Shown here: positions 11,592 to 47,193 of the stretch, piece after piece
How the letters are laid out: each line of letters opens with the position of its first letter
Position numbering within the stretch: the first letter of the stretch is position 1
DNA from: a virus
Lineage: Duplodnaviria > Caudoviricetes
Virus record (IMG/VR): IMGVR_UViG_3300032239_000223
Coordinates: 1-53,172 of that record
DNA: 53,172 nt
Direction: 5' to 3' (one strand)
Translations under genes and position numbers: made by a program
The notes under the pieces: generated by a model
What the model was told of the DNA's origin: nothing
Databases searched by the model: none
Seen by the model: the letters and a program-made list of their open reading frames with translations, nothing else

Positions 11592-12716
11592 TCAAGACCC
11601 AAACTCTTCTTTCACTTTTGACGGGACCAACTTGGGCTCGCCTGCAGGTTTAACAATCAGGTCACCAAGAATATCTTGGAGGTGCCCCTTGCCCACCTGC
11701 TTTTCCAATTGTGCCACAGATTTTAAACTGGGTGTGGTAAATATATCATCAAATCCAGCTTTCTGTAACTTTTTTGCCGCATCCTCTTGCGATTCTATTT
11801 TACGGTTTGTGCTTGTCTGCCCCAACTCGTAACCAGTAGGCACTATGCCATGGTCTGTGGCCTGTGTCAACATAAAATCTTCAACGTCAGAAAGCCACTT
11901 GCGTGTTTTTGCCGCGTCTGCAAGCACCTTCATTAACTCGCTGTCTGACAAGAGTGCAGGCGCTTTAAAATCCGCCGCCGCGGCCATGTTGTTAAAGTCT
12001 GCGCGTGCCCTGCACTGTGACTTGGCCCTGCAAAATTGACAGTGGTCGCCTGCCACAAAATCACCTTGGCCGGCGTGTGCCTTTTTGGCCTTGGGTTTAA
12101 CCACGTGCTCGGCCCAATCCTTCAACTCATCCAACGTCACCGTTTCACTGGTGATGCTGTCTTTACGGGGTTGATGAATGGTGTACTCAACGTGGGTAAT
12201 GTTTGGGTATTCGTCTTTGTACTTGTACCAACCACCAAGGCCGTACAGCCTCAGTTGCGGGTTGTCCTCTGCGTCTACAGCCACACCCTTGCCGAACTTC
12301 AGGTCGATTACTCGAACCTTGTTCTCGCTCATTATGACCACGTCGGCGGTGCCGAAGCCGTCAGGCACCCACTCACTGAAGTCCACCCGTTGCTCAAAGT
12401 AAGGGGTGTCACCCTCACCAATTTGCGAACGAACGTAGAGCACGTAGTTGTCTACATACGCCTCAAACTCCTCATCGTAGTACGGCGTTGCCTTGACCTC
12501 TGCAATGGCCTCGTTGTACTCCTTGGCCGTCATCTGTCCAAAATGCCGGCGTAGCTTGGCCTCTGCCATGGTGTGGGCTGTGGTGCCCTCTTGGCTGAAG
12601 TCAAACGCGCCTGATCTTCGTTTAGGTTCGGGGAGTACGGCCTCTAGTCGCGCGCTTGGTGTGCATGACATCCAACGTTTGGACCCTGAGGCACTGAGTA
12701 GTGCGTGTGTAGCGAT
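11592..12716 (-). CDS. DUF2800 family PD-(D/E)XK nuclease (Cas4-like); apparent ATC start
   Basis: HALLSASGSKRW, EGTTAH, GFGTAD, IDLKFGKG, NPQLRLY, C-x2-C-x5-C. AAGGAG lies 6 nt upstream of ATC 12716. Confidence 0.85.
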   Translation of the reverse strand: MATHALLSASGSKRWMSCTPSARLEAVLPEPKRRSGAFDFSQEGTTAHTMAEAKLRRHFGQMTAKEYNEAIAEVKATPYYDEEFEAYVDNYVLYVRSQIGEGDTPYFEQRVDFSEWVPDGFGTADVVIMSENKVRVIDLKFGKGVAVDAEDNPQLRLYGLGGWYKYKDEYPNITHVEYTIHQPRKDSITSETVTLDELKDWAEHVVKPKAKKAHAGQGDFVAGDHCQFCRAKSQCRARADFNNMAAAADFKAPALLSDSELMKVLADAAKTRKWLSDVEDFMLTQATDHGIVPTGYELGQTSTNRKIESQEDAAKKLQKAGFDDIFTTPSLKSVAQLEKQVGKGHLQDILGDLIVKPAGEPKLVPSKVKEEFGS

Positions 12717-12740
12717 GATGCTCTCCTTTATGCAAAGGTG

Positions 12741-12760
12741 AAAAAAGCCCCTCTCGGGGC
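12741..12760 (-). terminator. Intrinsic terminator after the TerS-like gene
   Basis: Minus strand gcccc-gaga-ggggc-tttttt. A second hairpin, gtcggcactt/aagtgccgac, lies at 12770-12795. Confidence 0.7.
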
Positions 12761-12801
12761 TTACAAAATGTCGGCACTTATTGACAAGTGCCGACGATAT
12801 G

Positions 12802-13191
12802 TTACGCCGCTTTTTTAAGCGCCGTAATCAAGTCGGTAACCGCACCTGAAAAATCCAACACGACGTCTGCCTTGACTTCAAGCTTACTGCTCTTGTCGTC
12901 GCGGTAGTCAGAGGGGAATTGACCCCTCAACGCTATCTCAGCCACCCTGCTGTTAAATGCCTTGTTCTCCACGTTGGCAAGCAACTGGGTTTCCCAGTAG
13001 GCCTGTGAGTGGGTGATGGCCATGTCCAGTGCTTCAGCAAACTCTGGGTGGTTTTTCTTGAACGTCTGCGCGGCCGCGGAACTGATTCCGACGCTTGCAA
13101 ACATCATTTTTTGGGACGCGCCTACCTTGCCCAACTCTATCAGTTGGTCGCACATCTCCGTTTTGAACTCGTATTTGGATTTCGTTGCCAT
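12802..13191 (-). CDS. Putative terminase small subunit (HTH DNA-packaging protein)
   Basis: SKY...CDQLIELGKVG...HPEFAEAL...SQAYWE pattern typical of P22 gp3-like TerS. Confidence 0.6.
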   Translation of the reverse strand: MATKSKYEFKTEMCDQLIELGKVGASQKMMFASVGISSAAAQTFKKNHPEFAEALDMAITHSQAYWETQLLANVENKAFNSRVAEIALRGQFPSDYRDDKSSKLEVKADVVLDFSGAVTDLITALKKAA

Positions 13192-13228
13192 GGTGTATAC
13201 CTTATATTCAAGGCCTAAAAAGGCCTTT

Positions 13229-13267
13229 CCTATATAGAATTACCCATTTTGCGAGGGTTTCTCGACC
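13229..13267 (-). promoter_or_regulatory. Phage bipartite promoter copy (GGTCG-N15-ATGGGTAATT-CTATATAGG)
   Basis: Matches the motif at five other sites; upstream of the TerS-like gene. Confidence 0.65.
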
Positions 13268-13431
13268 TTCTGCACCTGAGTATTTGCGTCTCGCACCTGC
13301 GCACGGGCCTTGGCCTCGCGTAATGCCTCGTTTACCACCAATCTTGTCACCGCTCCGGCCATTTCCTGAATGCGTTGCTCTTTTGGTTTCACGCCCAAAG
13401 ACGTTAATAAATTTGTTGCTTCATTTGCCAT
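13240..13431 (-). CDS. Hypothetical protein
   Basis: 63 aa, coupled to neighbours. Confidence 0.6.
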   Translation of the reverse strand: MANEATNLLTSLGVKPKEQRIQEMAGAVTRLVVNEALREAKARAQVRDANTQVQKVEKPSQNG

Positions 13432-13625
13432 TATGCTAATCCTTTAGTTTGCTGTTCTCGAAACTTGCGTAAATCCCGCAGTATGAAATCACGTTCGTCT
13501 TCGTTCTCAAAGTGCCATATTGACAGCACGTCTTGATCTTTCTCGAACATGGGGTGCTTGGCGTCAACCTGAATGTCTATTGTAGGCCATCCTTGCTTGA
13601 CATACTCCACTATGTATCCGTTCAC
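13431..13625 (-). CDS. Hypothetical protein
   Basis: 64 aa, GTG start overlapping the upstream stop. Confidence 0.6.
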   Translation of the reverse strand: MNGYIVEYVKQGWPTIDIQVDAKHPMFEKDQDVLSIWHFENEDERDFILRDLRKFREQQTKGLA

Positions 13626-13915
13626 AATTTTAACTCCTTTCGTATTTTAGCAACCGCCGCCGCAAAATGATAGCGCCAGTATTTTTGGGTCACTGCCAGA
13701 TCGTGGTAGTTGTACCCTGACAGGTGCGCCTCAATGATTTCCCTTTGTTGTGGGGACAGCTTCTCCGCCACGACGTTGTACACGTCTTGGATGGTGTCTG
13801 GTCCCCACGGCGCCCACCCTGCGCCGGTAGTAGGTTCTGAGGACGAATCCTCGTGCTCAAGAGGATCCGGCTCTTCGTCTGAAAGCCTGCGGATGGTGGC
13901 GTTTACTTTGATCAT
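13622..13915 (-). CDS. Sigma70 region 4-like helix-turn-helix protein
   Basis: Acidic linker then VAEKLSPQQREIIEAHLSGYNYHDL...AAAVAKIRKEL, resembling L(S/P)xxxRxxI...GxxxxE...AxxKLR of sigma region 4. Confidence 0.55.
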   Translation of the reverse strand: MIKVNATIRRLSDEEPDPLEHEDSSSEPTTGAGWAPWGPDTIQDVYNVVAEKLSPQQREIIEAHLSGYNYHDLAVTQKYWRYHFAAAVAKIRKELKL

Positions 13916-15249
13916 TGAAATTTGAGCGCGTTCATTAACGCGTTTTGCATGTCGATCTTTCCTTCTAGCACGAACATGACCTGACTGTCAATGCTTTTCT
14001 GCATGGTCAAATGGTGAATAATTACAGGCTTTTCTTGCCCCTGTCGGAACAGGCGCGCGTTGGCTTGTAAGTAGTCTTCACTGGACCATGGCAGGTCAAA
14101 CCAAACGATCTGGGCCGTGTCTCCCACGTTGCACTGCAGGTTCAGGCCGATGCCCACGCTTTTAGGGTGGCAAAGTAGCACTGGGACCTTACCAGAGCGC
14201 CACAGGGCGATTGTTTTATCGTCGTCAGGGCTGAGTAGCACCGCGTTAGGAAAAACGCCCTGAAGCCGTTTTAGGCTGTGTTTAAAGTTATAGAACACGA
14301 TCGTGGGCGTGTCGTCTAACATGTCGGTCAGGTATTCCAGTTTGGTGTCGTGGATGTGCACAATGTCTTTGGTCTCTGAGTAGATTGCCCCCGCGGTCAT
14401 TTGCAACAGCTTGCCTGTTAGCACGCCGGCCGAGGCCGCGGTCAGTGTCTCCTCTTCCACCTCGACAACCATTTCTTTGCGCATGGTGTTGTAGGCCTGC
14501 TTGGCCTGCTTTTCCCACTCAATGGTGTGCACAATGTCTTGACGCTGTGGCATGGTCAGGTAGTCCTCTTTGCGCAGGGACACGCAAATGTCCCCGATCA
14601 GGGCGTCAATCTGTTCTTTGGCGTTGGGTCGTAACTTCCAACTCCACACCATACCGGTCCTACGATCTCTTGTCTCGGGCTCGAAGAACTTCTCTTTGTA
14701 TGAAGTCATCGATTTCCCTAGTCGTTGGCCCAAATCCAAAATACCTACTTGGGTCCACAGGTCTAGGTACGACTTCGGGGTCGGTGTTCCTGTAAGTATG
14801 TACCTGTGCTCGAAATTCTTCAAATGCCCTTTCAACGTCTTCCACCGTTTTGACGACGGGTTTTTGAACCTGCTCGACTCGTCGACCACTAATGTCCGCC
14901 AACGCGGCAATGAGGCTTGCTCGAACATCCAAACCACGTTTTCGACGTTGGTCAAATACACGGTCGAATCGCTCTGCAACGCTTTCATTCTTTCCTGTGG
15001 TGTTCCCACAATGAGGGCAAATTTCATCTTCTCTGTGTGCGTCCAATTTTGTGCTTCCTGTTTCCAAACGTTTTTAACGACGGCCTTTGGTCCAATGATC
15101 AGCGTCTTGCCCTCAAGTTGGCTGAGTATTGTCAGTGCCGTTATCGTCTTGCCCAGTCCCATGTCCATCAGCAGTCCCATGTGCGGCTTGACTTTGCTCT
15201 CCTGCACTAGGCGCTGTTGGTAGGGGTGTAAATTTTTTAATGTCAACAT
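13912..15249 (-). CDS. SNF2-family helicase
   Basis: LHPYQ, DMGLGKT, VVDESS, LTGTP, GLNLQ, QANARLFRQGQ. Confidence 0.93.
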   Translation of the reverse strand: MLTLKNLHPYQQRLVQESKVKPHMGLLMDMGLGKTITALTILSQLEGKTLIIGPKAVVKNVWKQEAQNWTHTEKMKFALIVGTPQERMKALQSDSTVYLTNVENVVWMFEQASLPRWRTLVVDESSRFKNPSSKRWKTLKGHLKNFEHRYILTGTPTPKSYLDLWTQVGILDLGQRLGKSMTSYKEKFFEPETRDRRTGMVWSWKLRPNAKEQIDALIGDICVSLRKEDYLTMPQRQDIVHTIEWEKQAKQAYNTMRKEMVVEVEEETLTAASAGVLTGKLLQMTAGAIYSETKDIVHIHDTKLEYLTDMLDDTPTIVFYNFKHSLKRLQGVFPNAVLLSPDDDKTIALWRSGKVPVLLCHPKSVGIGLNLQCNVGDTAQIVWFDLPWSSEDYLQANARLFRQGQEKPVIIHHLTMQKSIDSQVMFVLEGKIDMQNALMNALKFQ

Positions 15250-15731
15250 CAATAGCCTGCTCTTTCCCTTGCTGTAACGTCGTTAACAATGCGATGGCGC
15301 GTTGGACGAGTGATGTAGGTATTTGCAGGGTCGCCGATGGGGGGCGGTCGTGCACCTCCATTGTTTACCTCCTTTATCTTTTCGTGTGTCCAGTCCGCAA
15401 CCTTGTACAGATCCTCCTGTGTTGCGTTGGACTTGATTGTGTTTGCTCTGTTACTTAGCCACGCCACGTTGCCTTTGACGTACCCCTTTTCAGGGATGAT
15501 TTTGTCTAGGCTCGGTGAATCAGGGCCGCTCGATCCCACAGTGCCTGACTGACCAAAACCCCAAAGGATCTTGGTCTTAAACACCGGACAATAATCGGGC
15601 GCGATTGCGCACAGGTAGTTATGGTCCAACTCAAATGGAATACCTGCGGCAAGGGCGCGTCGTTTAACGTTGAACATTGTTTTGGCAATGTGGTTTCGTT
15701 TTTTAGCCTCGTGGGCTTCGTCGTCGGTCAT
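15249..15731 (-). CDS. Putative free-standing HNH-type endonuclease
   Basis: CPVF...SPSLDKIIPEKGYVKGNVAWLSNRANTIKS. Confidence 0.7.
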   Translation of the reverse strand: MTDDEAHEAKKRNHIAKTMFNVKRRALAAGIPFELDHNYLCAIAPDYCPVFKTKILWGFGQSGTVGSSGPDSPSLDKIIPEKGYVKGNVAWLSNRANTIKSNATQEDLYKVADWTHEKIKEVNNGGARPPPIGDPANTYITRPTRHRIVNDVTARERAGY

Positions 15732-16009
15732 AGCAGGTTAACGAATTCGTCGACCTCTTGCTCGCTCATCAAGACGTGCGTGAACACCCCCTGACTGAGA
15801 AGCACCTTGTGTATGAACTCCTGCTTTGCGCTTAGTTCTCCCTTTGGGTCTTTCAACTCCACTGGGATTATCTGGCCCTTGTAGAACACTAGCCTGTCCG
15901 GCACCCCCGTCGTCGACGGGCTTACCCACTTCAGGCACAGGCCCCCCTTCTCCTTGATCTTTTTTACCAGTCTTTGTTCTATTTTCTTTTCGTTTTGCAA
16001 TTTTGGCAA
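15728..16009 (-). CDS. VRR-NUC domain nuclease
   Basis: EKKIE...GG...KWVSP...GVPDR...VELK...Q motif. Confidence 0.88.
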   Translation of the reverse strand: MPKLQNEKKIEQRLVKKIKEKGGLCLKWVSPSTTGVPDRLVFYKGQIIPVELKDPKGELSAKQEFIHKVLLSQGVFTHVLMSEQEVDEFVNLL

Positions 16010-16391
16010 CCTCCACTAAACAGGCCGTGAACATTTGACGCACCAACCATTCGGTCAGGTACGCCCTTGACTCTTCACCAAAGTCCTCCACCTCTTCACC
16101 AATGTGTTCAAGCACACGCGCCACAACGTGTGTGGCCTCATGCGCCACAACGCTGGCCAACAGGGCCGCGTTGTCAATGCACTCTACCAAGCTGAACACC
16201 ACGACGACAATAGCCTCCTTACTTGTAGAAAAACTATGTGTCTCCGCGATGCCCAACTCCAGTGGCGCCATCTCCGGCTGTGCCGCTATGCCGTGGTCCT
16301 TCAGCACCTTATAGAACGCCTTTGATGTAAAGCACATCTTTACAGGCACCGGAAAGAAACCAACGTCTACATGAAAATATGCGTCACTCAA
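15738..16391 (-). CDS. Hypothetical protein with HExxH motif; 3' part overlaps VRR-NUC
   Basis: VAHEATHVV followed by EESRAYL, zincin-like. Start coupled to the primase stop. Confidence 0.6.
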   Translation of the reverse strand: MSDAYFHVDVGFFPVPVKMCFTSKAFYKVLKDHGIAAQPEMAPLELGIAETHSFSTSKEAIVVVVFSLVECIDNAALLASVVAHEATHVVARVLEHIGEEVEDFGEESRAYLTEWLVRQMFTACLVEVAKIAKRKENRTKTGKKDQGEGGPVPEVGKPVDDGGAGQASVLQGPDNPSGVERPKGRTKRKAGVHTQGASQSGGVHARLDERARGRRIR

Positions 16392-18703
16392 AATATCTCC
16401 TCCCGTTCAAAGTTGCTGATACTGTCCACGTACTTCTGCGCCTTGGGTTTAAGCTTGATGCCAAGATAAACGTTGGCCAACTCACCATCAACACGAACCC
16501 TTGTCGCTGTCACGCGGTGGTCCTGCGTTGCCGCAAGAAACCTGCGCTTGAACGCCATGTCACTTCCGGGCGGTATGTTCTTTGCGGTGGCCCATTTGCG
16601 CCAACATATAAACACCTCGTCCTTCATTGCCTTGGCTTCTAGGTCGTAGTCCAGTGCGTCTGTCACGAATGACCCGATGGGGTTGCCTAGCTCCTCCATC
16701 AACTCCAATAACTCGCGTCCTGTTGTTGGTTGTTGGAACCTCTGGCCCTCGCGCGCCATGCGTCGTTGCTGTCCTGCGATGGCCCAGTTAAAAATAGCAG
16801 GCAACTCTTTGGCCAACTTGTCGGCCAACAGTGTGTCCTCTTTGCCGTAAAAACTGTTGCTCATCTTCAGCACAATCATGCGCCCTGTTAACGCGTTGGA
16901 GTTTTCTGTTAACTGCAAGGCCTCGTTAGAATAGATCACAATGCGCGTTGGCAAATATCCACTCCAAGCTTCCTTGTTTTTTCTGTTCACAGTCACAGTA
17001 TCCCCGCCAACAATCCGGAGCAACTGGCTCACTACAGCACCCCTGTTGCGCTCCGGTGCTCGTGCGTCCGTGAAACTCGCTAGCAGTTTTCCTAGCCATG
17101 GTTGAAGTCCAAAAGTATCGCATAGTTCGTCCAGTTGTGGCGCCACTGTGTTGTGTTGCCCCAAGAGGCTTACGAGCACCTTGTTGATCGTTCCCTTGCC
17201 AGAGCGGCGCGGTCCTATGATGTTAAAGAATTTCTGCTGTGTTGAATCACCGCTCAGAATGTAGCCGAACATCTCCTGCAGGCAGGTAATGCTCTCAGGG
17301 TCGTCGTTCCAAATGTCCTGCAAGAAACGCTCCCACGTTGGGCACGTCGCGTCAGGGTCATAAGCAAACGGCAAACTGTTCTGTGTGAAGAACCCCAAGC
17401 TGTGGGGTATCAACATGTTTTGCTCGGTGTGAAAAATGCCGTTCTCAAGCGACACCAGTTTGCTTGGGTCCGGCCTGTCCTTGCCATACCCCTCAAGCCA
17501 GACCGGTGGTTTGGTGTTGGCCGTGTTGGGTAGGTGGGTGACTGCGTGCACCGCGTCTAGGATCGCAGACACGTGCGCAGGCGTTGGGTTGAACGGCATC
17601 AGGTTTTGCTTCTTGTCGTACTTCTTGCACCGGTCCAAGAACGTGTACAGCATAGAACGCACTGTGGCCTCTTCAATGTCTTGGTAGTGTGTGCCCCTGT
17701 ACTGGAACATGTCGTTCGCGTACGTGGTCAATGACGTGCCTTCCTCGCACGTGAACTGGCTTGCCAAGAACTCTTTGGCGTGGTTCAGGGGCCCTCCTGT
17801 GAGCACCTTCTCGCCGTTGGCCACCACCGCGGCCTCTTTGGTCTTGTTGACCTTGAACACCAATGAACGCAGTGTCGTGCCTCCTGTGCCACCGAAGCTG
17901 TCCCACTTGGCCGCACACTGCCCTGCCGCGTAGGCACCACAGGCGCCGTCGTTATCAGACCACCGGTCCCACAACTCCAGTGCCTCGTAGTCGCCACCAA
18001 ACTGGTGGTGCAGGGCCATGCCCACCGCCAACCAGTCTGTGTACCCACAGTCGGGGTCCAACTGTGTCAGCAGGTCGGTCTCCACGCGGGCCAAGTCCCA
18101 CCCGTCCAGTGGGGGGCTGTAGTCTGCAAACGAGTCACCCGATCGGTAACTTCTGCGTGCGGGCACGATGTGTTGCAGGTCCTGCTCCTGATCAGGAATG
18201 GTGCCACCCAGTGTGTGGCCTGTCACTGTGAAGTAACGGCCCTTGGGGTAGATCTCTAAACCCTTCTCATGGTCGACGTGCGCGGCGTGTAACTGTGCAC
18301 GCGTAAAGATTTTAATGCCGGTGCCTGAGGGGCTGACCTCTGCGTAGCCTAGAACAGCGTCTTTAATGGCCTGCGCTTCAGGCGTAAGAGACGTTGGACC
18401 CTGAACGGCATCCACGCAGTCGTCCAAGTCGATGCCCATGATGCCGTCGCTACCATCAAAGACAAAGCCAACACCATCGAAGCGGCCAGTTTGATATGCT
18501 TCTTGTGCATGGAGAAAATCACACCACGTTGTTGGGTTTGTGGAACTTGCTGACGACCCATTTGACTGCAGTGGTAACTTTGACCACCGCTTGTTCGACT
18601 CTTCTCCAACCTCGACCAATCTCCAAAGAACCCAACGGGATATTTTCTTGAGGCTGATCGGGATGTTCTCGAATTGAACCGCCAGTGCTGTTGGTTTGTT
18701 CAT
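16388..18703 (-). CDS. Primase-helicase (primase-polymerase domain, PriCT-2, D5/SF3 helicase)
   Basis: GIDLDDC, EVSPSGTG, EIY...RYFTVTG, W..VGMALH, Walker A GPRRSGKGT. Confidence 0.92.
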   Translation of the reverse strand: MNKPTALAVQFENIPISLKKISRWVLWRLVEVGEESNKRWSKLPLQSNGSSASSTNPTTWCDFLHAQEAYQTGRFDGVGFVFDGSDGIMGIDLDDCVDAVQGPTSLTPEAQAIKDAVLGYAEVSPSGTGIKIFTRAQLHAAHVDHEKGLEIYPKGRYFTVTGHTLGGTIPDQEQDLQHIVPARRSYRSGDSFADYSPPLDGWDLARVETDLLTQLDPDCGYTDWLAVGMALHHQFGGDYEALELWDRWSDNDGACGAYAAGQCAAKWDSFGGTGGTTLRSLVFKVNKTKEAAVVANGEKVLTGGPLNHAKEFLASQFTCEEGTSLTTYANDMFQYRGTHYQDIEEATVRSMLYTFLDRCKKYDKKQNLMPFNPTPAHVSAILDAVHAVTHLPNTANTKPPVWLEGYGKDRPDPSKLVSLENGIFHTEQNMLIPHSLGFFTQNSLPFAYDPDATCPTWERFLQDIWNDDPESITCLQEMFGYILSGDSTQQKFFNIIGPRRSGKGTINKVLVSLLGQHNTVAPQLDELCDTFGLQPWLGKLLASFTDARAPERNRGAVVSQLLRIVGGDTVTVNRKNKEAWSGYLPTRIVIYSNEALQLTENSNALTGRMIVLKMSNSFYGKEDTLLADKLAKELPAIFNWAIAGQQRRMAREGQRFQQPTTGRELLELMEELGNPIGSFVTDALDYDLEAKAMKDEVFICWRKWATAKNIPPGSDMAFKRRFLAATQDHRVTATRVRVDGELANVYLGIKLKPKAQKYVDSISNFEREEIF

Positions 18704-18736
18704 GTGTTTGCGCCTTTGTGTTTGGTGAATAGTTTA

Positions 18737-19093
18737 TCATTTTTTGACACCCCTCAGTGTGTCGTACGCTGTTTCCCGCGCCTGCTTCATTTCCATAAGA
18801 CCCATCTCGGTCTCTTTGATCTGCTCGTCCATCTCGTTGACGATGGCCTGCCCGTACTTCTCCGCGGCCTCCTCGGCTGTCAGGTCTGCACGTGAGGCTT
18901 TACCGAGCACGCTGTTGTCATTTTCTGGCCCGTGGTACCCAAATTGTACAACCCCCTGCATTTCCAGTATGGTGATCACCACCATAGGCATGATCAGCAC
19001 GATGGCCAGTGCTGTGATGGGGTCCAAAAAGTACCCGACCACCGACGCCAGTATGGCGCCAAATAAATAGATTGCGTAAATTATTTTTTTCAT
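18737..19093 (-). CDS. Hypothetical membrane protein
   Basis: Two N-terminal hydrophobic segments and a coiled-coil tail. Confidence 0.65.
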   Translation of the reverse strand: MKKIIYAIYLFGAILASVVGYFLDPITALAIVLIMPMVVITILEMQGVVQFGYHGPENDNSVLGKASRADLTAEEAAEKYGQAIVNEMDEQIKETEMGLMEMKQARETAYDTLRGVKK

Positions 19094-19296
19094 CCGTGTT
19101 CTCCGCACGTTGTCAGGGTTTCGTTGACTATCTCGGTAATGCTACCAAACACGTCCTCCATCGGCTCCCCGTATTTGTAGTGCTGTCGTAACTGTGTCTC
19201 AATCTCTAACAGGGCCATGATGGCCGTCTGCCCGTGCAGGGCATAGCGCAACTTGTCCTCGTCGTGTGGGTACTCAAATTCAATTGTTGCCTTCAT
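19090..19296 (-). CDS. Hypothetical protein
   Basis: MKATIEFEYP..., coupled overlaps. Confidence 0.7.
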   Translation of the reverse strand: MKATIEFEYPHDEDKLRYALHGQTAIMALLEIETQLRQHYKYGEPMEDVFGSITEIVNETLTTCGEHG

Positions 19297-19625
19297 GCTT
19301 TGCTCCAGTCGTAGTCGTCATCTTCTTCCCCCGCACGCGCGCGCTCTTCAAATATGTATTTGGGCTGGTGGTTTTGTGTGTAGTCTGCCCACGCCTCCTC
19401 GTAACGCACGTACTCTGTGTTTTGAATGAAGAGGGGCGTCAGACGCCCGTCCTCTTTGACTGACCCTAGACAACGTGTGGCGGGTGTGCGCGTTGCGCGC
19501 CACACCTTCCTCGCGCGCCTGACACGTAACCACGCCTCCCTGACCTCTTCGGTCCACTGTGCCGCCTTCTCAGGCGGTAGCTTTTTTAGGTTGGCCTCGT
19601 ATACTGCGCGCTCGTTGTCTGTCAT
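19293..19625 (-). CDS. Hypothetical protein
   Basis: 110 aa in operon. Confidence 0.6.
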   Translation of the reverse strand: MTDNERAVYEANLKKLPPEKAAQWTEEVREAWLRVRRARKVWRATRTPATRCLGSVKEDGRLTPLFIQNTEYVRYEEAWADYTQNHQPKYIFEERARAGEEDDDYDWSKA

Positions 19626-19628
19626 GTC

Positions 19629-19820
19629 TTAGTCCTTTGGTGTCAACAGTTTGCCTTCAGCGATGGCGGCCTTGAGCACGCCAATGAACGCAAAATTTAG
19701 CAGGTACTTGGTTGCCAGTGGCCCCATGTTGATGTTGCAGTCACAGGACCCGTCCTCGTTCTCCTGCACGTGCTCCACCCGTATGTAGTCAAAATCTTTA
19801 ATGTCAACTTCTGAGATCAT
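19629..19820 (-). CDS. Hypothetical protein
   Basis: Contains ENEDGS motif; start uncertain. Confidence 0.6.
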   Translation of the reverse strand: MISEVDIKDFDYIRVEHVQENEDGSCDCNINMGPLATKYLLNFAFIGVLKAAIAEGKLLTPKD

Positions 19821-19910
19821 AATCAACTCGCTAGTTTGTACAGGCCGACGTTCGCAAACGCGTAGCCTAAATACGTTAGACACATGGGCATGTTGTCCTT
19901 GAGCCCCTGC

Positions 19911-20120
19911 TCAATTGCCACGCCCGCATAGATCAGCCCCGTCAGGGCTATTAGCCACCCGCTCATACTCTTCCTCCACCAGTTTAGTGAACTTCTTCAA
20001 CTCTTTGTCGTAGTCACAGGACCAGTCTATCGTGGCGCCCTTAGGCTTCCAGTCGCTGTCCTTTGACCACATGACAAAACCCGCCTGCTCTGCTAATTGT
20101 AGCATTCTAGCACGTTTCAT
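19911..20120 (-). CDS. Hypothetical protein
   Basis: LAEQAGF...IDWSCDYD...KF pattern. Confidence 0.65.
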   Translation of the reverse strand: MKRARMLQLAEQAGFVMWSKDSDWKPKGATIDWSCDYDKELKKFTKLVEEEYERVANSPDGADLCGRGN

Positions 20121-20356
20121 GCCAACCCCCTGTAAGTTAATTCGGGGCAGGTGTAGGTTGTGCCGTGCCAGTCTGCGTGGTAGGCGCTCCTGACCTTGTT
20201 GGCCTCGAACTCGGCCGCCTTCCTAGCCTTCGTGGCACGCTTGTACGCGTTTATCCTGTCCCTGTTGGCCCTTGCGTACTCGCGCTCTGTCTCGCGCTTA
20301 CGTTCTAGACGTTTTCGGTTTGTTTCCCACACGTCTCTAATATCGCCTTTAGCCAC
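20117..20356 (-). CDS. Hypothetical basic protein
   Basis: 79 aa, coupled. Confidence 0.55.
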   Translation of the reverse strand: MAKGDIRDVWETNRKRLERKRETEREYARANRDRINAYKRATKARKAAEFEANKVRSAYHADWHGTTYTCPELTYRGLA

Positions 20357-20534
20357 TGTTCTTCTCCTTCAGTTTGGTTTCAATCTCTTTTGCAAAATTG
20401 TTAACATGGCCTCCATAGACAATTCTCCACTTGTCGCACATGGCCTTCAACTCCTCGTCTGTCAACGGCCGCCATGGGCGCGTGTACTCCTGAATGTCGT
20501 CGTCTATCTGCCGCTTGCGCCATCCTGTTGTCAT
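20349..20534 (-). CDS. Hypothetical protein
   Basis: W..LTDEE...FAKEIETKLKEKN pattern common in phage small proteins. Confidence 0.65.
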   Translation of the reverse strand: MTTGWRKRQIDDDIQEYTRPWRPLTDEELKAMCDKWRIVYGGHVNNFAKEIETKLKEKNSG

Positions 20535-20866
20535 GTCATCCCCTTCTTTGCGCATGGTGCGCGTTCTGCGAACACCGACGCCAGTAGGTGGTCGGCCCCC
20601 CTGTTGGGCCCGTGGTACCGGCCCAGTCCCTCGCGCGTCCACTTGACGAGCATGTCTCGTGCCGGTGGCATGCCTGTGGGGCAGTGCACGATGCCGGCCA
20701 TGGCGTCGTAGACGCCTAGTATGTAGCCCGTTGCCTGCACCGCCTCCGGTGTGTATGGGTCCTTGAGCGCCTCACGCAGTCCTTGGATCGACAGGTGTTG
20801 AGAGTGAGCGCTCACTTCAAATAGGGCGCTTGCTGTGATGATGAGGGCTTTAAATACGGGGTTCAT
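20531..20866 (-). CDS. Secreted Rap1a-like (T6SS amidase immunity fold) protein
   Basis: Signal-peptide-like N-terminus; GYILGVYD...CP...A..L...F....PC matches the Rap1a pattern as recalled. Confidence 0.6.
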   Translation of the reverse strand: MNPVFKALIITASALFEVSAHSQHLSIQGLREALKDPYTPEAVQATGYILGVYDAMAGIVHCPTGMPPARDMLVKWTREGLGRYHGPNRGADHLLASVFAERAPCAKKGMT

Positions 20867-21110
20867 GTCTTTGCTCCATCTCGGCCGCTAGGCTGTCTAG
20901 TTGGTCGTGTGCGTCGGGGTTCCATATTGCGTCGTCTAGCGACGGGCCCTGTATGGTCGTGTTGATGGTCCATGTGTCTGCCTCTCGGGTAAACAGGGGC
21001 CGCAGGTACCGGCCCAACATCGCGTCGTCCACTAACCGGTCGGCCCTTGCCCGCTCCAGTTCGTACGACCGCTTGTAGGCCTCTGCTAGTTGTATCATTC
21101 TGTCAATCAT
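20850..21110 (-). CDS. Hypothetical protein
   Basis: 86 aa in operon. Confidence 0.55.
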   Translation of the reverse strand: MIDRMIQLAEAYKRSYELERARADRLVDDAMLGRYLRPLFTREADTWTINTTIQGPSLDDAIWNPDAHDQLDSLAAEMEQRHEPRI

Positions 21111-21627
21111 AATCTTCTTCCGTTATTTGGTCTTTCTTGTACGCGTCCAGTGACACCGGTTGTCTCTGGCTCACCACCAGTCTGTCGCGGACCCTGCTCT
21201 CTGTCAGGCCCGTCAACTTGGCCACCTCTTTGGTCGTTGGGTCCCTGTTGAGCACCTGTGCCAACTCGGTCTCCACCCGCTTGATCTTGCGCAGGTCCTC
21301 CTGCACCGACACAGGCACGTGGATCAGTAGGGCCTTATTCTCTACTGCTCTGAGCACTTGGCTCTTGATCAGTGTGCGTGCGTAACTCGCAAACCTTCCC
21401 TGCGGTTTCCACCTGTGCGCGGCCTTCATCAGGGCCATGTAGCCCTCCTGCAGTAGGTCGTCGCGTGTCATACTGCTGTTCAGGTCCCACTGCGGCAACT
21501 TCTGCACGATGTACACCACCAGTCCCATGTTGGCTTCCACCAACTGCTCGTGGGCCTCCTCGTCACCCTGCACGATCCGGTGGTGCAGTTCGATCTCTTG
21601 TTCTGCCGTCAGTAGTTGTCGTCTCAT
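21103..21627 (-). CDS. Sigma70-family sigma factor (regions 1.2-3 only, no region 4)
   Basis: LLTAEQEIEL (1.2), LVEANMGLVV (2.1), DLLQEG..ALMKAA (2.2), RFASYA (2.3), IHVPV, LNRDPTTKEVA (3), ending at PVSLD. Confidence 0.85.
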   Translation of the reverse strand: MRRQLLTAEQEIELHHRIVQGDEEAHEQLVEANMGLVVYIVQKLPQWDLNSSMTRDDLLQEGYMALMKAAHRWKPQGRFASYARTLIKSQVLRAVENKALLIHVPVSVQEDLRKIKRVETELAQVLNRDPTTKEVAKLTGLTESRVRDRLVVSQRQPVSLDAYKKDQITEEDYD

Positions 21628-21905
21628 CGTTGGTCCATTGCGTTGTCGTAGTTGAGCATGGCCTGCACCCCATCCTCTCTGCCGGCATCGTACGCGTCCC
21701 ATGACTCACAGTCGCACACGTACCGGCCCGCTTGGTGGCTTGCCTCTCTCGCAAACCCGTGTGGTGCCTTTGAGTGTGTGTTGCACTTGGGTTGTTGGGC
21801 GTCGGGGTGCTTGGCCCCCTGTTGGTACGCGAACTCGACCAACTCCACTGTGCGGTGGTCCACGTTGACTATTTGCAACATCTGTTTAATGTCGTCTAGG
21901 TTCAT
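21624..21905 (-). CDS. Hypothetical protein, Cys/His-containing
   Basis: C..H..APHGF.R..SH....YVC.C.W motif. Confidence 0.65.
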   Translation of the reverse strand: MNLDDIKQMLQIVNVDHRTVELVEFAYQQGAKHPDAQQPKCNTHSKAPHGFAREASHQAGRYVCDCESWDAYDAGREDGVQAMLNYDNAMDQR

Positions 21906-22210
21906 TCTTGTGGCTCCTTCATCTTGGCAATTACGTCTGTGTACTCTTGGGCCTGTGGGGCCCGTAGGTCGAACACGGCAAAGGCATTTTGGCCGCTCTG
22001 CCGCCAGTGTAGTCCGTCTTCACAGGCCTGTGCAACTTGCTTGGCCTCCTCCTCGGTTGAGTAAAACCCCACCACGTCGGAACTCACGCCACACTCGATG
22101 CACCCCACGTTGAACACCATCCAAGGTTTATGCTTTTTGGCGCCCTCGTAGATCACCTGCATGCGCAACTTGGACCTGCGCTCTGCCTCGTTGAAATCAT
22201 CTTGGTTCAT
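21902..22210 (-). CDS. Hypothetical protein
   Basis: Contains VGCIECG; start MNQDD. Confidence 0.6.
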   Translation of the reverse strand: MNQDDFNEAERRSKLRMQVIYEGAKKHKPWMVFNVGCIECGVSSDVVGFYSTEEEAKQVAQACEDGLHWRQSGQNAFAVFDLRAPQAQEYTDVIAKMKEPQE

Positions 22211-22449
22211 TCGTCGTACTCCTCGTCGATTACAGGCCACACTAGCAGTGGGGTGTCTTTGCCAATATACGCGTTATCTATGTTGAAGTCAATGAATTCC
22301 AGTGCCTCGTCACGCGTCATGCCGTCTCTAATCATAAGTACACTTACGATTTCCTCGCCACTGTATACAAACACAGGCACACGTTCACCTGCTTGGTACG
22401 TCAGGGTTGTCCCTATGATCGCCTTGTCTAAGTTGGTCCGTCTTTTCAT
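22207..22449 (-). CDS. Conserved phage hypothetical protein
   Basis: D.AIIG...VY...L..DGM...EA.EF..FNI..AY.G..TP pattern. Confidence 0.75.
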   Translation of the reverse strand: MKRRTNLDKAIIGTTLTYQAGERVPVFVYSGEEIVSVLMIRDGMTRDEALEFIDFNIDNAYIGKDTPLLVWPVIDEEYDE

Positions 22450-22577
22450 TGCGTTCTTTCTCCAGTTGTTGTTTCAGTACGTACTTAGCGTCGGGCCTGC
22501 TTGCAAACCCCCTGCTTAGTCTACCATCATCATCCTGCAGTAACCCTGCCGGTTATCCAGTCTTTTTAGTCATAAAG

Positions 22578-22586
22578 TTATCCACA
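22578..22586 (+). promoter_or_regulatory. Perfect DnaA box TTATCCACA
   Basis: Exact 9-mer 43 bp from the origin-like element. Confidence 0.5.
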
Positions 22587-22629
22587 GTTGTAAAAAAGCA
22601 ACACTTTTAAAAATGAATACTTTAGTTTA

Positions 22630-22755
<126 letters not shown>

Positions 22756-22916
22756 CAAAGTATTCAATTTTAGTTGACGCGTCTGAAACTTACACGAAAC
22801 TTACGCGTTGCTTAAAATTTAATCAAAGTAGCAGATCACGGCCAGTAGGACGATGGCCCACCGCGGCTGTTTGGCCGCCCACAGGGCCAGTACACCAAAT
22901 AACCCCGCCAAGGCCA

Positions 22917-23072
22917 TCACAACACCACCCTGACCGGTGTATCCGGTGGGATACTGGCCTTAAAGGCCTCTATGGCCTCTAGGCGCGACCTGCCGGTGTA
23001 GGTGCGGCCTGACCCTGCCCAAGCCTCCCAACGCTCGTTGGTGGCGTTGTACGCGACGTGTATGTTGATCAT
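22917..23072 (-). CDS. Small hypothetical protein (51 aa)
   Basis: MINIHVAYNA..., coupled overlaps, read by hand. Confidence 0.45.
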   Translation of the reverse strand: MINIHVAYNATNERWEAWAGSGRTYTGRSRLEAIEAFKASIPPDTPVRVVL

Positions 23073-23287
23073 GTGATCTTCCCCTCGTGGACCATTTTCT
23101 CAAACGTGTCGAACATGCGCTGAAAACGAATGTTGTATAGCTCGTGTAGGCCCAACAGCACGTTCATCATGCGGTCCTCGTCTTGGTACAGGGCCTCGGT
23201 GTGGTAGACCATCTCAATGTCGTCTGTAACACCCCAACACTGCATAATTTGGTCTTCCAGTGTGAATCGGTCTAGTTGTTTCATCAT
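23069..23287 (-). CDS. Hypothetical protein
   Basis: DRF.LE..IM.CW....D...N.LLG...LY...F pattern. Confidence 0.75.
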   Translation of the reverse strand: MMKQLDRFTLEDQIMQCWGVTDDIEMVYHTEALYQDEDRMMNVLLGLHELYNIRFQRMFDTFEKMVHEGKIT

Positions 23288-23502
23288 GCCATGCTCCGGT
23301 TAAGGGTTTTCCCTAATAAATTAAACAGGTCGTTTTGTGCGGCCTCTTTTTGGCCGCAGATTAACAGGTTCTCAATGTCTGCCAACTGCTCTTGGCTGAC
23401 CCACAGTCCGTCACCCGCGTCTGCCGGTGCCGTCACCACGTAGCCCCAGTCCCGCAGGTACTCGGCCACGTCCTTGATGTCGTAGTCTTCTAATGATTTC
23501 AT
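23284..23502 (-). CDS. Hypothetical protein
   Basis: 72 aa, GGAG RBS, coupled. Confidence 0.65.
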   Translation of the reverse strand: MKSLEDYDIKDVAEYLRDWGYVVTAPADAGDGLWVSQEQLADIENLLICGQKEAAQNDLFNLLGKTLNRSMA

Positions 23503-23660
23503 GCTATCTCCTTCCGCGGCACCTTGGCCGCCAGTAAATGCTTGTCACCCAGTAGGCGCACCGAGCGCACCCACTGGCGCATGTTGTGCCTTGCTGTGCT
23601 CGTTGGCACCATGTCGTGCACAAACAGTGTGCGCACGTGTTTCAAAAGCTTTGTGTTCAT
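23499..23660 (-). CDS. Small hypothetical protein (53 aa)
   Basis: MNTKLLKHVRTLF...RHNMRQWVRSVRLLGDK, ATGA overlaps on both sides. Confidence 0.7.
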   Translation of the reverse strand: MNTKLLKHVRTLFVHDMVPTSTARHNMRQWVRSVRLLGDKHLLAAKVPRKEIA

Positions 23661-23890
23661 TCTGTAACCTCCACCTCAAAGGGGATTGAATTGTCGATGA
23701 AACCCTGCCGTTTTTCGTATGGCAGGGCAAAGATGATGCCGAACTGGCGGTTAACCGCGGCCTGTACTGCCAATGGCAGATTCCATTTGTGCGGGTCGTC
23801 GTTAGAATCAGTCACAGTGACCTCACGACCTTCGGGTGTGGCCACGTGCTGAACTGCGGCAATACTGCCGTGTCTAATTGTGTACTTCAT
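23657..23890 (-). CDS. Hypothetical protein
   Basis: Coupled; start MKYTIR. Confidence 0.6.
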   Translation of the reverse strand: MKYTIRHGSIAAVQHVATPEGREVTVTDSNDDPHKWNLPLAVQAAVNRQFGIIFALPYEKRQGFIDNSIPFEVEVTE

Positions 23891-24228: not shown

Positions 24229-24380
24229 TTTGTTTTCTCCTCTTTTTCAATCTGTTCACGTGTGGCATCAATTTCTAGTCGTATTCTGTCCAGTCGATCC
24301 CAATCACCCTCGTCAAAATATACTTTGTCTATGGCTAATAAATGTGCTAGATGCTCTTGTAGTTCAGACAATTTGGTCAT
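24225..24380 (-). CDS. Small hypothetical protein (51 aa)
   Basis: MTKLSELQEHL..., fills the gap with overlaps. Confidence 0.55.
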   Translation of the reverse strand: MTKLSELQEHLAHLLAIDKVYFDEGDWDRLDRIRLEIDATREQIEKEEKTK

Positions 24381-24857: not shown

Positions 24858-24867
24858 GGTTTTCTCC

Positions 24868-25122: not shown

Positions 25123-25162
25123 GGTTTGCTCCTTTGTATTGATATGGTCAACTGGGGGTGAA

Positions 25163-25606: not shown

Positions 25607-25653
25607 GGTGTGCTCCTGTGTTGTTGATACTACTATGGTCAACTGGGGGTGAA

Positions 25654-26830: not shown

Positions 26831-26840
26831 GTCGTGCTCC

Positions 26841-30547: not shown

Positions 30548-30577
30548 GGGCACAAACAGCCGCATCCATGGGTGATT
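30548..30577 (+). promoter_or_regulatory. Phage bipartite promoter copy (GGGCA-N15-ATGGGTGATT)
   Basis: Upstream of the intein-like/TerL operon; same spacing as the other copies. Confidence 0.65.
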
Positions 30578-32901: not shown

Positions 32902-32940
32902 GGGCACAAACACCCTCTTTTATGGGTGATTGGTTATAGG
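32902..32940 (+). promoter_or_regulatory. Phage bipartite promoter copy (GGGCA-N15-ATGGGTGATT-GGTTATAGG)
   Basis: Intergenic after terL; shares GGGCACAAACA with the 30548 copy. Confidence 0.7.
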
Positions 32941-37727: not shown

Positions 37728-37766
37728 GGGCATAAGTACGCACTTTTGTGTGTACTTAGTTATAAG
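37728..37766 (+). promoter_or_regulatory. Divergent bipartite promoter copy (GGGCA-N15-GTGTGTACTT-AGTTATAAG)
   Basis: Same spacing, three mismatches in the downstream box; precedes the head-gene cluster. Confidence 0.5.
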
Positions 37767-41568: not shown

Positions 41569-41600
41569 AAACGCCCTGCCTGCAAAGGTAGGGCGTTTTT
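41569..41600 (+). terminator. Intrinsic terminator after the capsid gene
   Basis: aaacgccctgcc-tgcaaa-ggtagggcgttttt. Confidence 0.8.
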
Positions 41601-41629
41601 GTTTGTGGATATGGGTAATTCTATGTAAG
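41591..41629 (+). promoter_or_regulatory. Phage bipartite promoter copy (GGGCG-N15-ATGGGTAATT-CTATGTAAG)
   Basis: Restarts transcription directly after the terminator. Confidence 0.7.
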
Positions 41630-47154: not shown

Positions 47155-47193
47155 GGGCATAGCGGCCCTTTTTTATGGGTAATTATCTATAGG
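47155..47193 (+). promoter_or_regulatory. Phage bipartite promoter copy (GGGCA-N15-ATGGGTAATT-ATCTATAGG), overlapping a weak terminator
   Basis: Same motif and spacing. Confidence 0.7.

Follow-up and report, generated by a model that had tools for sequence, protein, structure and literature searches.

A phage sigma factor possibly divided between two separately encoded proteins

Two minus-strand genes that lie 7.2 kb apart in the genome of an uncultured freshwater phage (Caudoviricetes) quite likely encode the subunits of one sigma factor, split within region 3.2. The products, a truncated sigma factor and a protein of 97 aa, probably cooperate as a two-part switch of the late genes. The window analyzed here is the whole record of 53,172 nt. 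The proposal is suggested by the complementary anatomy of the two proteins, one of which contains regions 1.2, 2 and 3 and a short tail, and the other a linker and a domain that resembles sigma region 4. Domain content, fold, a conserved cut point, co-occurrence and promoter architecture are the observations on which it is built.

A sigma factor that ends in region 3.2

The larger protein is encoded at 21103..21627 (minus strand). The longest frame of the gene is ORF 21103-21702 (199 aa), and the ATG at 21627 gives a product of 174 aa, a length that agrees with the 170-177 aa of 26 near-full-length relatives. Pfam, PHROG, comparison of the family profile with SigA and RpoD, and an AF2 model identify the product as a truncated member of the sigma-70 family. 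Sigma70_r2 (PF04542; E 1e-11, 44.9 bits against a cut-off of 24) and Sigma70_r3 (PF04539; E 1.1e-10, 41.9 bits against a cut-off of 25.3, profile positions 1-52 of 78) match above their thresholds, and PHROG 351 'RNA polymerase sigma factor' matches the ORF at 1.7e-31. The profile of the family aligns to residues 108-265 of the 368 residues of the Staphylococcus aureus SigA chain (3.4e-35) and to residues 352-509 of the 613 residues of Escherichia coli RpoD.

The protein comprises regions 1.2, 2 and 3.1, followed by the SLD motif, with which region 3.2 begins, and by an acidic tail of 13 residues (...RQPVSLDAYKKDQITEEDYD). The original prediction, that regions 1.2, 2 and 3 are present and that the protein stops just after PVSLD, is borne out: in alignments with full-length sigma factors it ends 13 residues past SLD. 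The match to Sigma70_r1_2 (E 0.0014, 18.9 bits) lies below the cut-off of 22. In the AF2 model (pLDDT 80.6), helices extend to residue 154, and the tail (residues 157-174, pLDDT below 50) is predicted to be disordered. The SigA motif FSTYATWWIRQAITRA contains two tryptophans that have a role in promoter melting; in the alignment, TL (FASYARTLIKSQVLRA) occupies their place in the phage protein.

Pfam finds no region 4 in the 174 residues, the sole 'r4' match (E 0.059, residues 128-150) being the helix-turn-helix (HTH) of region 3. The gene is, as had been proposed, tightly coupled to its neighbours, with an overlap of 4 nt between its start and the stop of ORF 21624-21905 and of 8 nt between its stop and the start of ORF 20850-21110. 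The absence of a region 4 remnant downstream also held, in that the 86-aa product encoded directly downstream gave no match in Pfam and PHROG searches.

The truncation recurs in related phages. None of 31 short sigma relatives, with identities down to 54%, carries PF04545, whereas the 13 sigma matches with identities of 40% or below all carry it and measure 276-304 aa. The sigma factor of the relative G005 (34% identity, 190 aa) ends in EP[IV]S[LI]x followed by 13-15 mostly acidic residues, and the same ending was found in 12 of 12 sigma ORFs (178-208 aa) in more distant records. Thus, the cut point is old and conserved.

A small protein with a region-4-like fold

The gene for the 97-aa protein (MIKVNATIRRLSDEEPDPLEHED...KLSPQQREIIEAHLSGYNYHDLAVTQKYWRYHFAAAVAKIRKELKL) at 13622..13915 (minus strand) is part of the replication module and remote from the sigma gene. 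Its start and the stop of an SNF2 helicase gene (13912-15252) overlap. For both ORFs, coordinates and content were recovered as predicted upon re-examination of ORFs and Pfam matches. The acidic linker followed by a region-4-like domain, which had been described for the small product, was found again, as an acidic, disordered N-terminus and a C-terminal domain modelled with confidence, in the family alignment, the AF2 model, the structure matches and the Pfam comparison. About 38 disordered residues, which include at residues 10-20 the motif RLSDEE-D--E, invariant in the family alignment, precede the HTH domain (residues ~39-97), whose recognition helix reads [VL]TEK[YH]WRYH, with TEK[YH]WRYH invariant in the family.

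Residues 41-90 of the AF2 model reach a pLDDT of 88-93 per 10-residue block. The best structural match is region 4 of sigmaE (1or7_A; Z 9.3, rmsd 2.5 Å over 63 residues); a Z of 8-9 ranks as middling when a helical domain is this small. Among the 50 matches listed in that search, no title is that of a LuxR-type regulator. A Foldseek-independent search of 48,161 chains placed sigma factors at ranks 1-21 (Z 7.0-8.9), followed at rank 23 by the first protein that is not a sigma factor, EL222 (Z 6.8), with regulators of the NarL, DesR and RcsB types at Z 4.8-6.1. In two structure searches, sigma region 4 domains therefore score about 2 Z units above LuxR-type HTHs; the Foldseek matches include FixJ, DesR and RcsB (E 0.56-0.86). 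The region 4 fold, with the helices of 4.1 and the HTH of 4.2, is present in the model at moderate Z values, which supports a sigma-4-like fold of the protein.

The sequence signals for such an identity are weak but consistent. The proposed comparison with Sigma70_r4 succeeded at the level of structure (Z up to 9.3) and fell short at the level of HMMs, given that no region 4 model of Pfam or NCBIfam reached its curated threshold on the 97-aa protein: Sigma70_r4_2 (PF08281) scores 12.7 bits (E 0.11) under a cut-off of 25.7, and TIGR02937 scores 11.9 bits under a cut-off of 42.9. PHROG gave no match for this protein. Ten of the 27 members of the small-protein family match PF08281 at E ≤ 1, the best at 0.0034. 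In a six-frame scan of the entire record, Sigma70_r4 (PF04545) had no match at E ≤ 0.001, and the single match of PF08281 at E ≤ 10 lies within the small gene (13694-13765, minus strand; E 0.006, 12.7 bits). The distant family member P0118 matches SigH models (E 9e-6; far under the whole-protein cut-offs) with residues 17-100 on positions 123-207 of 218, and these C-terminal ~85 positions are, judging by the domain limits of SigH, presumably the linker and region 4. SigH models are matched at E ≤ 0.01 by 2 of 13 distant members, and a profile match (E 2.8e-4) falls on the C-terminal part of P0131, an ECF-type sigma factor of 151 aa. In hhalign comparisons, the small protein is colinear from end to end with regions 3.2-4 of full-length sigma factors (P 0.016 for profile A1 and 0.0015 for A5, the profile of the distant members), at low probabilities of 0.9-17%. 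Searched against PDB sequences, the family profiles found no sigma factor: the best sigma match of A1 has an E of 1, and the best match of A5 is GerE (E 0.095). The named NCBIfam matches of family members at E ≤ 0.01 are all sigma factors, with one exception (MobA).

The small protein looks like a linker joined to a region 4 of the SigH/ECF type, unlike region 4 of the RpoD/SigA-type sigma factors, which the large protein resembles. A simple recent fission of one gene is therefore an unlikely origin of the pair.

Co-occurrence and late-type promoter-like sites

Among 159 loci, 60 contain both genes, on the same strand, with the sigma gene upstream at a distance of 6,590-10,015 nt, and in none of the 60 are the two adjacent. 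The small gene alone was found in 85 loci, 82 of which extend no more than 8.1 kb upstream; in the other three (L082, L088 and L152, with ~9.9-10.0 kb each), the sigma gene is present at another place in the complete record. Of the 14 records with a distant relative of the small protein, 12 contain a single Sigma70_r2 match, which lies in an open frame of 178-209 aa. The two records that lack a sigma match are G013, which is 63% complete and extends 3.4 kb beyond the small gene on the upstream side, and G021, whose weak partial match the HMM does not assign to the family. In records that are long enough, neither gene was found without its counterpart, at sigma identities as low as 34%. As expected, the genes co-occur in related phages wherever there is enough sequence, and the cut is always in the same place. 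It should be noted that this co-occurrence could reflect mere shared ancestry or synteny, both genes possibly being core genes of the clade.

The predicted promoter motif GGGCR-N15-ATGGGTRATT proved to be real, with four plus-strand sites and two variants. The site at 30548..30577 (GGGCA-N15-ATGGGTGATT) precedes by 11 nt ORF 30588-31460, which encodes the N-terminal part of the terminase large subunit, and that at 32902..32931 (GGGCA-N15-ATGGGTGATT, then GGTTATAGGAGG) precedes ORF 32952-33149 by 21 nt. The site at 41591..41620 (GGGCG-N15-ATGGGTAATT) is located directly past the major head protein gene, 95 nt before ORF 41715-42248, and its GGGCG forms the 3' arm of a hairpin upstream; that at 47155..47184 (GGGCA-N15-ATGGGTAATT, then ATCTATAGGAGC) is directly past the endolysin gene. 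The plus-strand variant at 37728..37757 (GGGCA-N15-GTGTGTACTT, then AGTTATAAGGAGG) has a -10-like sequence, GTGGGTACTT, that is also in use in the relative G022. On the minus strand, a near match at 13238..13267 (GGTCG-N15-ATGGGTAATT, then CTATATAGGA) lies upstream of the small-terminase-like ORF 12802-13191; its -10-like part is unchanged in 76 of 76 aligned copies from relatives, and CTATATAGGA in 74, the other two having CTGTATAGGA.

The pattern GGGC[AG]-N15-nTGnnTn[AC]nT occurs 5 times in the window and 5, 10, 6, 5 and 7 times in G003, G005, G012, G022 and G019, respectively, against means of 0.48-0.75 and maxima of 3-4 in 100 first-order Markov simulations. In these six genomes, the sites are mostly 2-120 nt upstream of the next same-strand ORF; several are 200-1,400 nt upstream and two have no called ORF. 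The -35-like GGGCR box and the spacing are identical in all six, as is the recognition helix of the small protein, and this equal invariance suggests the 97-aa protein as the reader of the box. The -10-like box varies with the sigma clade, being TGGGTRATT or TGGGTACTT in some and TGCATAAGT or TGCATTAGT in others. Two features of the sites allow for other interpretations. A TG lies directly upstream of the -10-like box, as in extended -10 promoters, which can make region 4 dispensable, so that the large protein might suffice by itself. Several sites show GGGC paired to a GCCC or CCC within the spacer, with a T-run behind it, or as the 3' arm of an upstream hairpin, and the box could thus be part of a terminator-like hairpin rather than a -35 element read by a protein.

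The site scan found no late-type promoter upstream of the sigma gene or the 97-aa gene. A generic scan of 12000-30500 gave no more terminator-like sites than shuffled sequences, and between 13.9 and 21.1 kb there is no such minus-strand site with more than 6 stem pairs. Therefore, the two genes may be co-transcribed. The timing switch envisaged in the original proposal is conjectural.

A proposed two-subunit sigma factor

In the mechanism that we propose, the 174-aa protein would bind the core of the host RNA polymerase through region 2, which would read the -10-like box, with region 3 reading the TG just upstream. The 97-aa protein would contribute the remaining linker of region 3.2 (the 'sigma finger') through its invariant acidic N-terminus, and its sigma-4 domain, seated on the beta-flap, would recognize the invariant GGGCR box at -35. 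The pair would redirect the host polymerase to the late promoters of structural and lysis genes. We infer the binding to core and flap, the assignment of one box to each protein and the need for both. The original prediction of a joint late sigma factor is thus partly supported, by the fold, by co-occurrence with a fixed cut and by two-part promoters with an invariant -35-like box, the binding to RNA polymerase being putative.

It is unlikely, although several findings would fit, that the 97-aa protein is instead a free-standing regulator of the GerE/LuxR type, which binds GGGCR or other sites away from the beta-flap, next to a self-sufficient extended -10 sigma factor. GerE, which is similar in size and has the same HTH superfamily fold, is the best PDB sequence match of the distant-member profile, LuxR-type HTHs appear in the structural lists (Z 4.8-6.8) as well as in that of Foldseek, the promoters have the TG, and the small gene belongs to the replication module, distant from the sigma gene. 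However, region 4 of sigma factors ranks higher in both structure searches, and the named NCBIfam matches point almost uniformly to sigma factors. Moreover, the conserved acidic extension is colinear with the sigma linker, we know of no counterpart of it in GerE, and the protein is strictly paired with a sigma factor that lacks exactly the region 4 part.

That the two proteins are functionally unrelated, the sigma factor acting alone or with another partner, for which the sliding clamp of T4 would be a model, and the small protein regulating, for example, replication genes, appears improbable. The distance between the genes, which are never neighbours, would be compatible with this, and so would plain synteny as the cause of their co-occurrence; yet the scans of the record gave no sigma-4-like reading frame other than the 97-aa ORF, and a conserved box at the -35 position, with an invariance that parallels that of the recognition helix, needs a reader. 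Very improbable, in our estimation, is a role of the truncated sigma factor as an inhibitor or decoy that occupies the host core and shuts off host transcription without directing initiation. The missing region 4 and the replacement of WW by TL would be in accord with such a role, but none of the 51 ORFs of the record that were scanned is an RNA polymerase gene, and the 5-6 phage-specific promoter-like sites before late genes need a specificity factor.

Returning to the two-subunit sigma factor, partial precedents exist. In phage T4, gp55 is a minimal protein of the region 2 type and gp33 is not a reader of DNA; the late promoters of T4 have no -35 element, and their activation needs the sliding clamp. 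The protein gp55 is described in the role of region 2 and gp33 in the position of region 4 at the beta-flap, both being needed for late genes (bioRxiv 10.64898/2026.10.01.756105; PMC13627669). As with gp55 and gp33 (with the gp45 clamp), sigma function is proposed here to be split between two phage proteins encoded apart; unlike in T4, the large protein keeps regions 1.2-3, the small one contains an HTH like that of sigma-4, and a conserved box is found at -35 of the promoters. The genes for SigO-RsoA of Bacillus subtilis and Sig7-Sig8 of Tn916 are encoded side by side. Each pair of small proteins is described to provide regions 2 and 4, to associate with RNA polymerase and to recognize -10 and -35 elements (bioRxiv 10.64898/2026.10.01.756105; PMC10141391). 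These pairs are group 4-like, with regions 2 and 4 only, and cellular or ICE-borne; the phage system differs in that its large protein is RpoD/SigA-like, has regions 1.2 and 3 and is cut in region 3.2, and in that its genes are 6.6-10 kb apart. Further precedents are gp33 and gp34 of Bacillus phage SPO1, two phage proteins that jointly direct late transcription (bioRxiv 10.64898/2026.10.01.756105), and MtvS1-MtvS2 of Francisella, a sigma-like protein without domain 4 and a second protein predicted at the beta-flap, the position proposed here for the 97-aa protein. The latter pair, for which the authors propose a split sigma factor, is of cellular origin and regulates a CRISPR locus; their attempt to reconstitute transcription was unsuccessful (PMC13627669).

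A more specific version of the proposal, which we consider tentative and rather doubtful, places the cut at the tip of the sigma finger. The large protein would then supply the ingoing half of region 3.2, and the small protein the outgoing half, the invariant L-x-[DE]-E-x-x-D-x-x-E, which would thread the RNA exit channel to the sigma-4 domain of SigH/ECF type. If this is true, a complete finger and a reader of both the -10 and the -35 box would come about only if the two polypeptides meet on one core enzyme. The combination of an RpoD-like front half with an ECF-like back half would thereby place late transcription under an inherent AND gate, one shared by a large clade of uncultured freshwater phages.

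The truncated sigma-70 protein

The open reading frame at 21103-21627 (minus strand) encodes a protein of 174 aa, in which Pfam detected sigma-70 region 2 (E 1e-11), region 3 (E 1.1e-10) and, under its cut-off, region 1.2 (E 0.0014), and in which the same scan found no region 4. The best matches of the family profile were primary sigma factors, including residues 108-265 of the 368-residue chain of S. aureus SigA (3.4e-35); E. coli RpoD was matched at residues 352-509 of 613, and the alignment to SigA/RpoD stops at ...PVSLD/E. The original observation that this sigma ends shortly after PVSLD without a region 4 is thus borne out by Pfam and profile alignment alike. The tail beyond SLD comprises just 13 residues, most of them acidic (AYKKDQITEEDYD), and the AF2 model (pLDDT 80.6) has confident helices up to residue 154, followed by a tail with pLDDT <50.

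A region 4 domain is absent from the closest 31 of 44 database relatives (54-95% identity), 26 of which have lengths of 170-177 aa and five of which are fragments; the remaining 13, with identities of at most 40%, are 276-304 aa long and contain PF04545 in every case (13/13). The sigma of the related virus record G005 (190 aa, 34% identity to that of the window) has the same stop point, and so does another set of 12 sigma ORFs (178-208 aa) in records at greater distance; all these distant sigmas close with EP[IV]S[LI]x and then 13-15 residues that are rich in acidic side chains. Judged by these sequence comparisons, the truncated gene is not a recent wreck; numerous environmental phage genomes, with sigma identities ranging from approximately 100% to 34%, have kept the arrangement, which is therefore a stable design, not a broken gene.

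The adjoining downstream ORF 20850-21110 was considered as the missing part of the sigma and rejected, since it has no Pfam or PHROG match. The G005 counterpart downstream of the sigma is a different protein of 163 aa, which also argues against the downstream ORF as the missing piece.

The small region-4-like protein

The candidate second part is a protein of 97 aa encoded at 13622-13915 (minus strand), by a gene whose start overlaps the stop of the SNF2 helicase gene. The family includes 55 near relatives, and a profile search of 1.84 billion representatives retrieved 35 clusters, all of 33-229 aa, none of which (0/35) was a fused (Rosetta-stone) form joined to sigma regions 2-3. One protein, P0123 (229 aa), resembles the first half of the family, acidic motif included, over its N-terminal 61 residues and is unrelated thereafter; it is probably a chimeric or misassembled contig and not a real fusion.

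Eight of the 17 invariant columns of the family lie in the N-terminal block R10-L-S-D-E-E-x-D-x-x-E20, and a second conserved block, V75...K78-Y-(W)-R-(Y)-(H), is C-terminal. Even the most divergent members keep an invariant, reduced form of the N-terminal motif, L-x-x-E-x-x-D-x-x-E. The AF2 model has pLDDT <50 for residues 1-12 and 21-31 and is confident for residues ~39-97. With this model Foldseek returned nothing at E <= 0.001, and its best rows were sigma-4 domains (E 0.15, probability 0.99). VIA-align matched 63 residues to region 4 of E. coli sigmaE (Z 9.3, rmsd 2.5 Å), with no LuxR-type regulators among the 50 entries listed. In an independent search of 48,161 chains, ranks 1-21 were all sigma factors (Z 7.0-8.9), the first LuxR-type protein was EL222 at rank 23 (Z 6.8), and the NarL, DesR and RcsB types had Z values of 4.8-6.1; for a helical domain of this small size such Z scores are moderate, and the ranking weighs more than the absolute scores.

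At the sequence level, PF08281 matched the small protein of the window at E 0.11 and 10 of 27 relatives at E <= 1 (best 0.0034), and the small ORF was the only r4_2 match in a six-frame scan of the record. The related protein P0118 matched SigH models at 9e-6, its residues 17-100 falling on positions 123-207 of 218. These last ~85 model positions are taken to be the linker plus region 4; two of 13 distant members matched SigH models at E <= 0.01. The family profile also matched the C-terminal part of P0131, an ECF-type sigma, at 2.8e-4. Permissive hhalign placed the whole small protein colinear with the part of full-length sigmas from SLD to the C-terminus, at P 0.016 and 0.0015 and a probability of just 3-17%, and comparison of the family alignment (A1) with full-length sigmas gave a 28-column match in region 4.1 with a probability of 0.9%. 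As evidence to the contrary, the small-family profiles yielded no significant sigma among PDB sequences (best sigma match E 1); the top match, a designed repeat protein, was discarded as an artefact of summed weak repeat matches, and the best match of the distant-member profile was GerE (E 0.095). The named neighbours in the ESM Atlas were clusters of ~110 aa with Sigma70_r4_2 alone (score 0.92), to be read as a lead only. The favourable sequence evidence is weak and points in the same direction as the structure, to sigma-4. The proposal that the small ORF is region-4-like is supported by the modelled fold, which ranks with sigma-4, and the family match is weak at E 0.11.

Genome setting, gene pairing and promoter-like motifs

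The window is linear (53,172 bp), is a whole IMG/VR virus record and has an estimated completeness of 82%. Between ~29.7 and 6.4 kb, the leftward (minus-strand) genes specify early proteins of small size together with a replication module (primase-helicase, SNF2 helicase, nucleases, Gp2.5-like SSB, ribonucleotide reductase and DNA polymerase). The rightward genes, which run from 29.9 kb onward and also occupy 1-6.3 kb, are those for terminase, portal, head, tail and lysis proteins. The phage must use the host polymerase, because none of the 51 window ORFs scanned matched an RNA polymerase family. Neither tRNA genes nor Rfam matches were found in the window. Megablast of the window against cultured-phage records gave no match, and tblastn with the small protein against them gave nothing at E <= 0.01; sigma matches there had at most 40% identity, and the annotated ones were labelled sigma factors. 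Pseudomonas, Ralstonia and Xylella phages have DNA polymerases that share 32-36% identity with that of the window, and GTDB gives no host clue because only two MAG contigs carry a copy of the small protein. The terminase large subunit is represented by two overlapping plus-strand ORFs, 30588-31460 (290 aa, matching the N-terminal part) and 31451-32896 (481 aa, C-terminal part), for which frameshifting, gene splitting or misassembly could account. The ORF 15249-15731 (minus strand) is HNH/endonuclease VII-like, and the weak match of its residues 68-127 to the PHROG 'Srd anti-sigma factor' (3.9e-7) probably stems from a nuclease motif common to both.

Both genes were present in 60 of 159 loci scanned by HMM (some contigs are represented twice), always on the same strand, with the sigma upstream at a distance of 6,590-10,015 nt. 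The small gene was alone in 85 loci, 82 of which reach no more than 8.1 kb upstream; the other three (L082, L088 and L152) have ~9.9-10.0 kb upstream, and the sigma is present elsewhere in each whole record. The sigma was alone in seven loci, which end 0.6-7.3 kb downstream. Of 14 records reached via distant relatives of the small protein, 12 contain a single region 2 match each, located in a short open frame; of the two exceptions, one record is 63% complete and its sequence before the small gene amounts to just 3.4 kb, and in the other a weak partial region 2 match is not a family member by HMM. The co-occurrence in relatives that had been proposed as a check was observed, and most single-gene loci have short flanks. 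It should be noted that co-occurrence is necessary for a split sigma and that the pairing may also stem from simple synteny among core genes.

The bipartite promoter motif named originally is real, and it recurs above simulated counts in the window and five related records. GGGC[AG]-N15-nTGnnTn[AC]nT has five copies in the window, five in G003, 10 in G005, six in G012, five in G022 and seven in G019, versus simulated means of 0.48-0.75 and maxima of 3-4 for the same six genomes. For most sites the next same-strand ORF begins 2-120 nt downstream, and for several it is farther away (up to ~1.4 kb) or no downstream ORF is called; those of the window precede terminase, head-tail and lysis-region genes. 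If GGGCRN is taken as the -35 hexamer, an 18-nt spacer is followed by TG-n and the hexamer GTRATT, ATAAGT or ATTAGT, an ordinary sigma-70 geometry with an extended -10 TG. In the six genomes the GGGCR box and the spacing are constant, as is the recognition helix of the small protein, [VL]TEK[YH]WRYH, and the -10-like box differs between sigma clades. This pattern, a correlation across six genomes, would be expected if the small protein reads the -35 and the large one the -10 box. At several sites, GGGC is able to pair with GCCC/CCC in the spacer before a T-run or closes an upstream hairpin, and part of the GGGC conservation could therefore come from terminator-like hairpins.

Several further elements were observed. 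Most late sites of the six genomes have a (G/A)(T/G)TATAGGA-like element 1-3 nt past the -10-like box, which may be a start-site region or a leader/ribosome-binding element. The leftward unit ends with a small-terminase-like ORF, 12802-13191 (minus strand; phrog_309, 1.4e-7), a long way from the large terminase. This ORF is preceded by a late-type site whose variant -35-like box, GGTCG, relatives conserve, and is followed by a strong terminator-like hairpin at 12795-12770. G005 (loci L118-L121) has a second frequent dyad, CTTGCT-N15/16-GTGCCAA, with up to 12 copies, and G012 (L172-L175) a very abundant short repeat with words such as CCAGAGATACCA and dyad counts >50, probably a long tandem array inside a coding region. 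Six ~30-nt copies of an early-gene element, AATTCACCCCCA(A/G)(T/A)TGACCATAGTAGTATCA, lie on the minus strand at 25126-29750 of the window (as plus-strand GGGTGAATT at 25156, 25647, 27507, 28170, 29328 and 29720, with a partial copy at 5786), each preceding the ribosome-binding site and ATG of a leftward early gene by ~15-30 nt; they differ from the late motif and are likely to be a second class of early promoters or operator sites.

As regards the putative timing switch, no late-type promoter was found upstream of the sigma or the small gene. Scans of 12000-30500 for generic sigma-70 promoters and terminators gave no more than chance, and the generic scan listed no terminator-like site with >6 stem pairs on the minus strand between the two genes. 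Metatranscriptome contigs 90-99% identical to the late region (30000-49999) came from four RNA runs of freshwater and marine assemblies, with the highest depth at the head genes (~37-42 kb); they show that relatives are present in RNA libraries, not transcription, and say nothing on promoter use because contigs hide starts and strands and DNA is possibly present.

A probable sigma factor assembled from two proteins

A two-subunit sigma is the most likely mechanism, and we favour it with some reserve. Region 2 of the large protein would bind the core and read the -10-like box, and its region 3 would read the TG. Its acidic tail would extend to roughly sigma70 residues 510-521 when the RpoD alignment is extended, the position of the sigma finger relative to these residues being assumed here. 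The disordered, invariant and acidic N-terminus of the small protein may supply the remainder of the region 3.2 linker via the RNA exit channel, and the sigma-4 domain of the same protein would dock on the beta-flap, where it would read GGGCR. The back half resembles sigma-4 of the SigH/ECF type and the front half RpoD/SigA, which suggests either that the parts came from different sigma groups or that the split is very old. The proposal of one sigma from two proteins is partly supported: domains, pairing and two-part promoters fit it, and the two proteins would act jointly.

To our knowledge, two-piece sigmas are known from few systems only, namely T4, SPO1, SigO-RsoA and Tn916 Sig7-8. T4 gp55/gp33, SPO1 gp33/gp34, SigO-RsoA and Tn916 Sig7/Sig8 are given as established in bioRxiv 10.64898/2026.10.01.756105, SigO-RsoA and Tn916 Sig7-Sig8 also have an entry in a table of PMC10141391, and Francisella MtvS1/2 is a proposed split sigma according to PMC13627669. 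Compared with these systems as described there, the pair of the window differs in that it retains an RpoD-like body with regions 1.2-3, in that the break lies in region 3.2 before a predicted complete, DNA-reading sigma-4, and in that the two genes are kilobases apart. Full-text literature searches outside subscription journals found no description of a phage sigma divided in region 3.2.

The pair would represent a different way of dividing sigma, with an RpoD-like body set apart from sigma-4 within the region 3.2 linker. If true, it would provide a natural test of the roles of the sigma finger and of the covalent sigma-3/sigma-4 link in initiation and promoter escape, and a naturally occurring transcription gate with two inputs, whose two-part promoter, GGGCR-N15-(T/A)TG-N2-T-N-A-N-T, is clearly defined.
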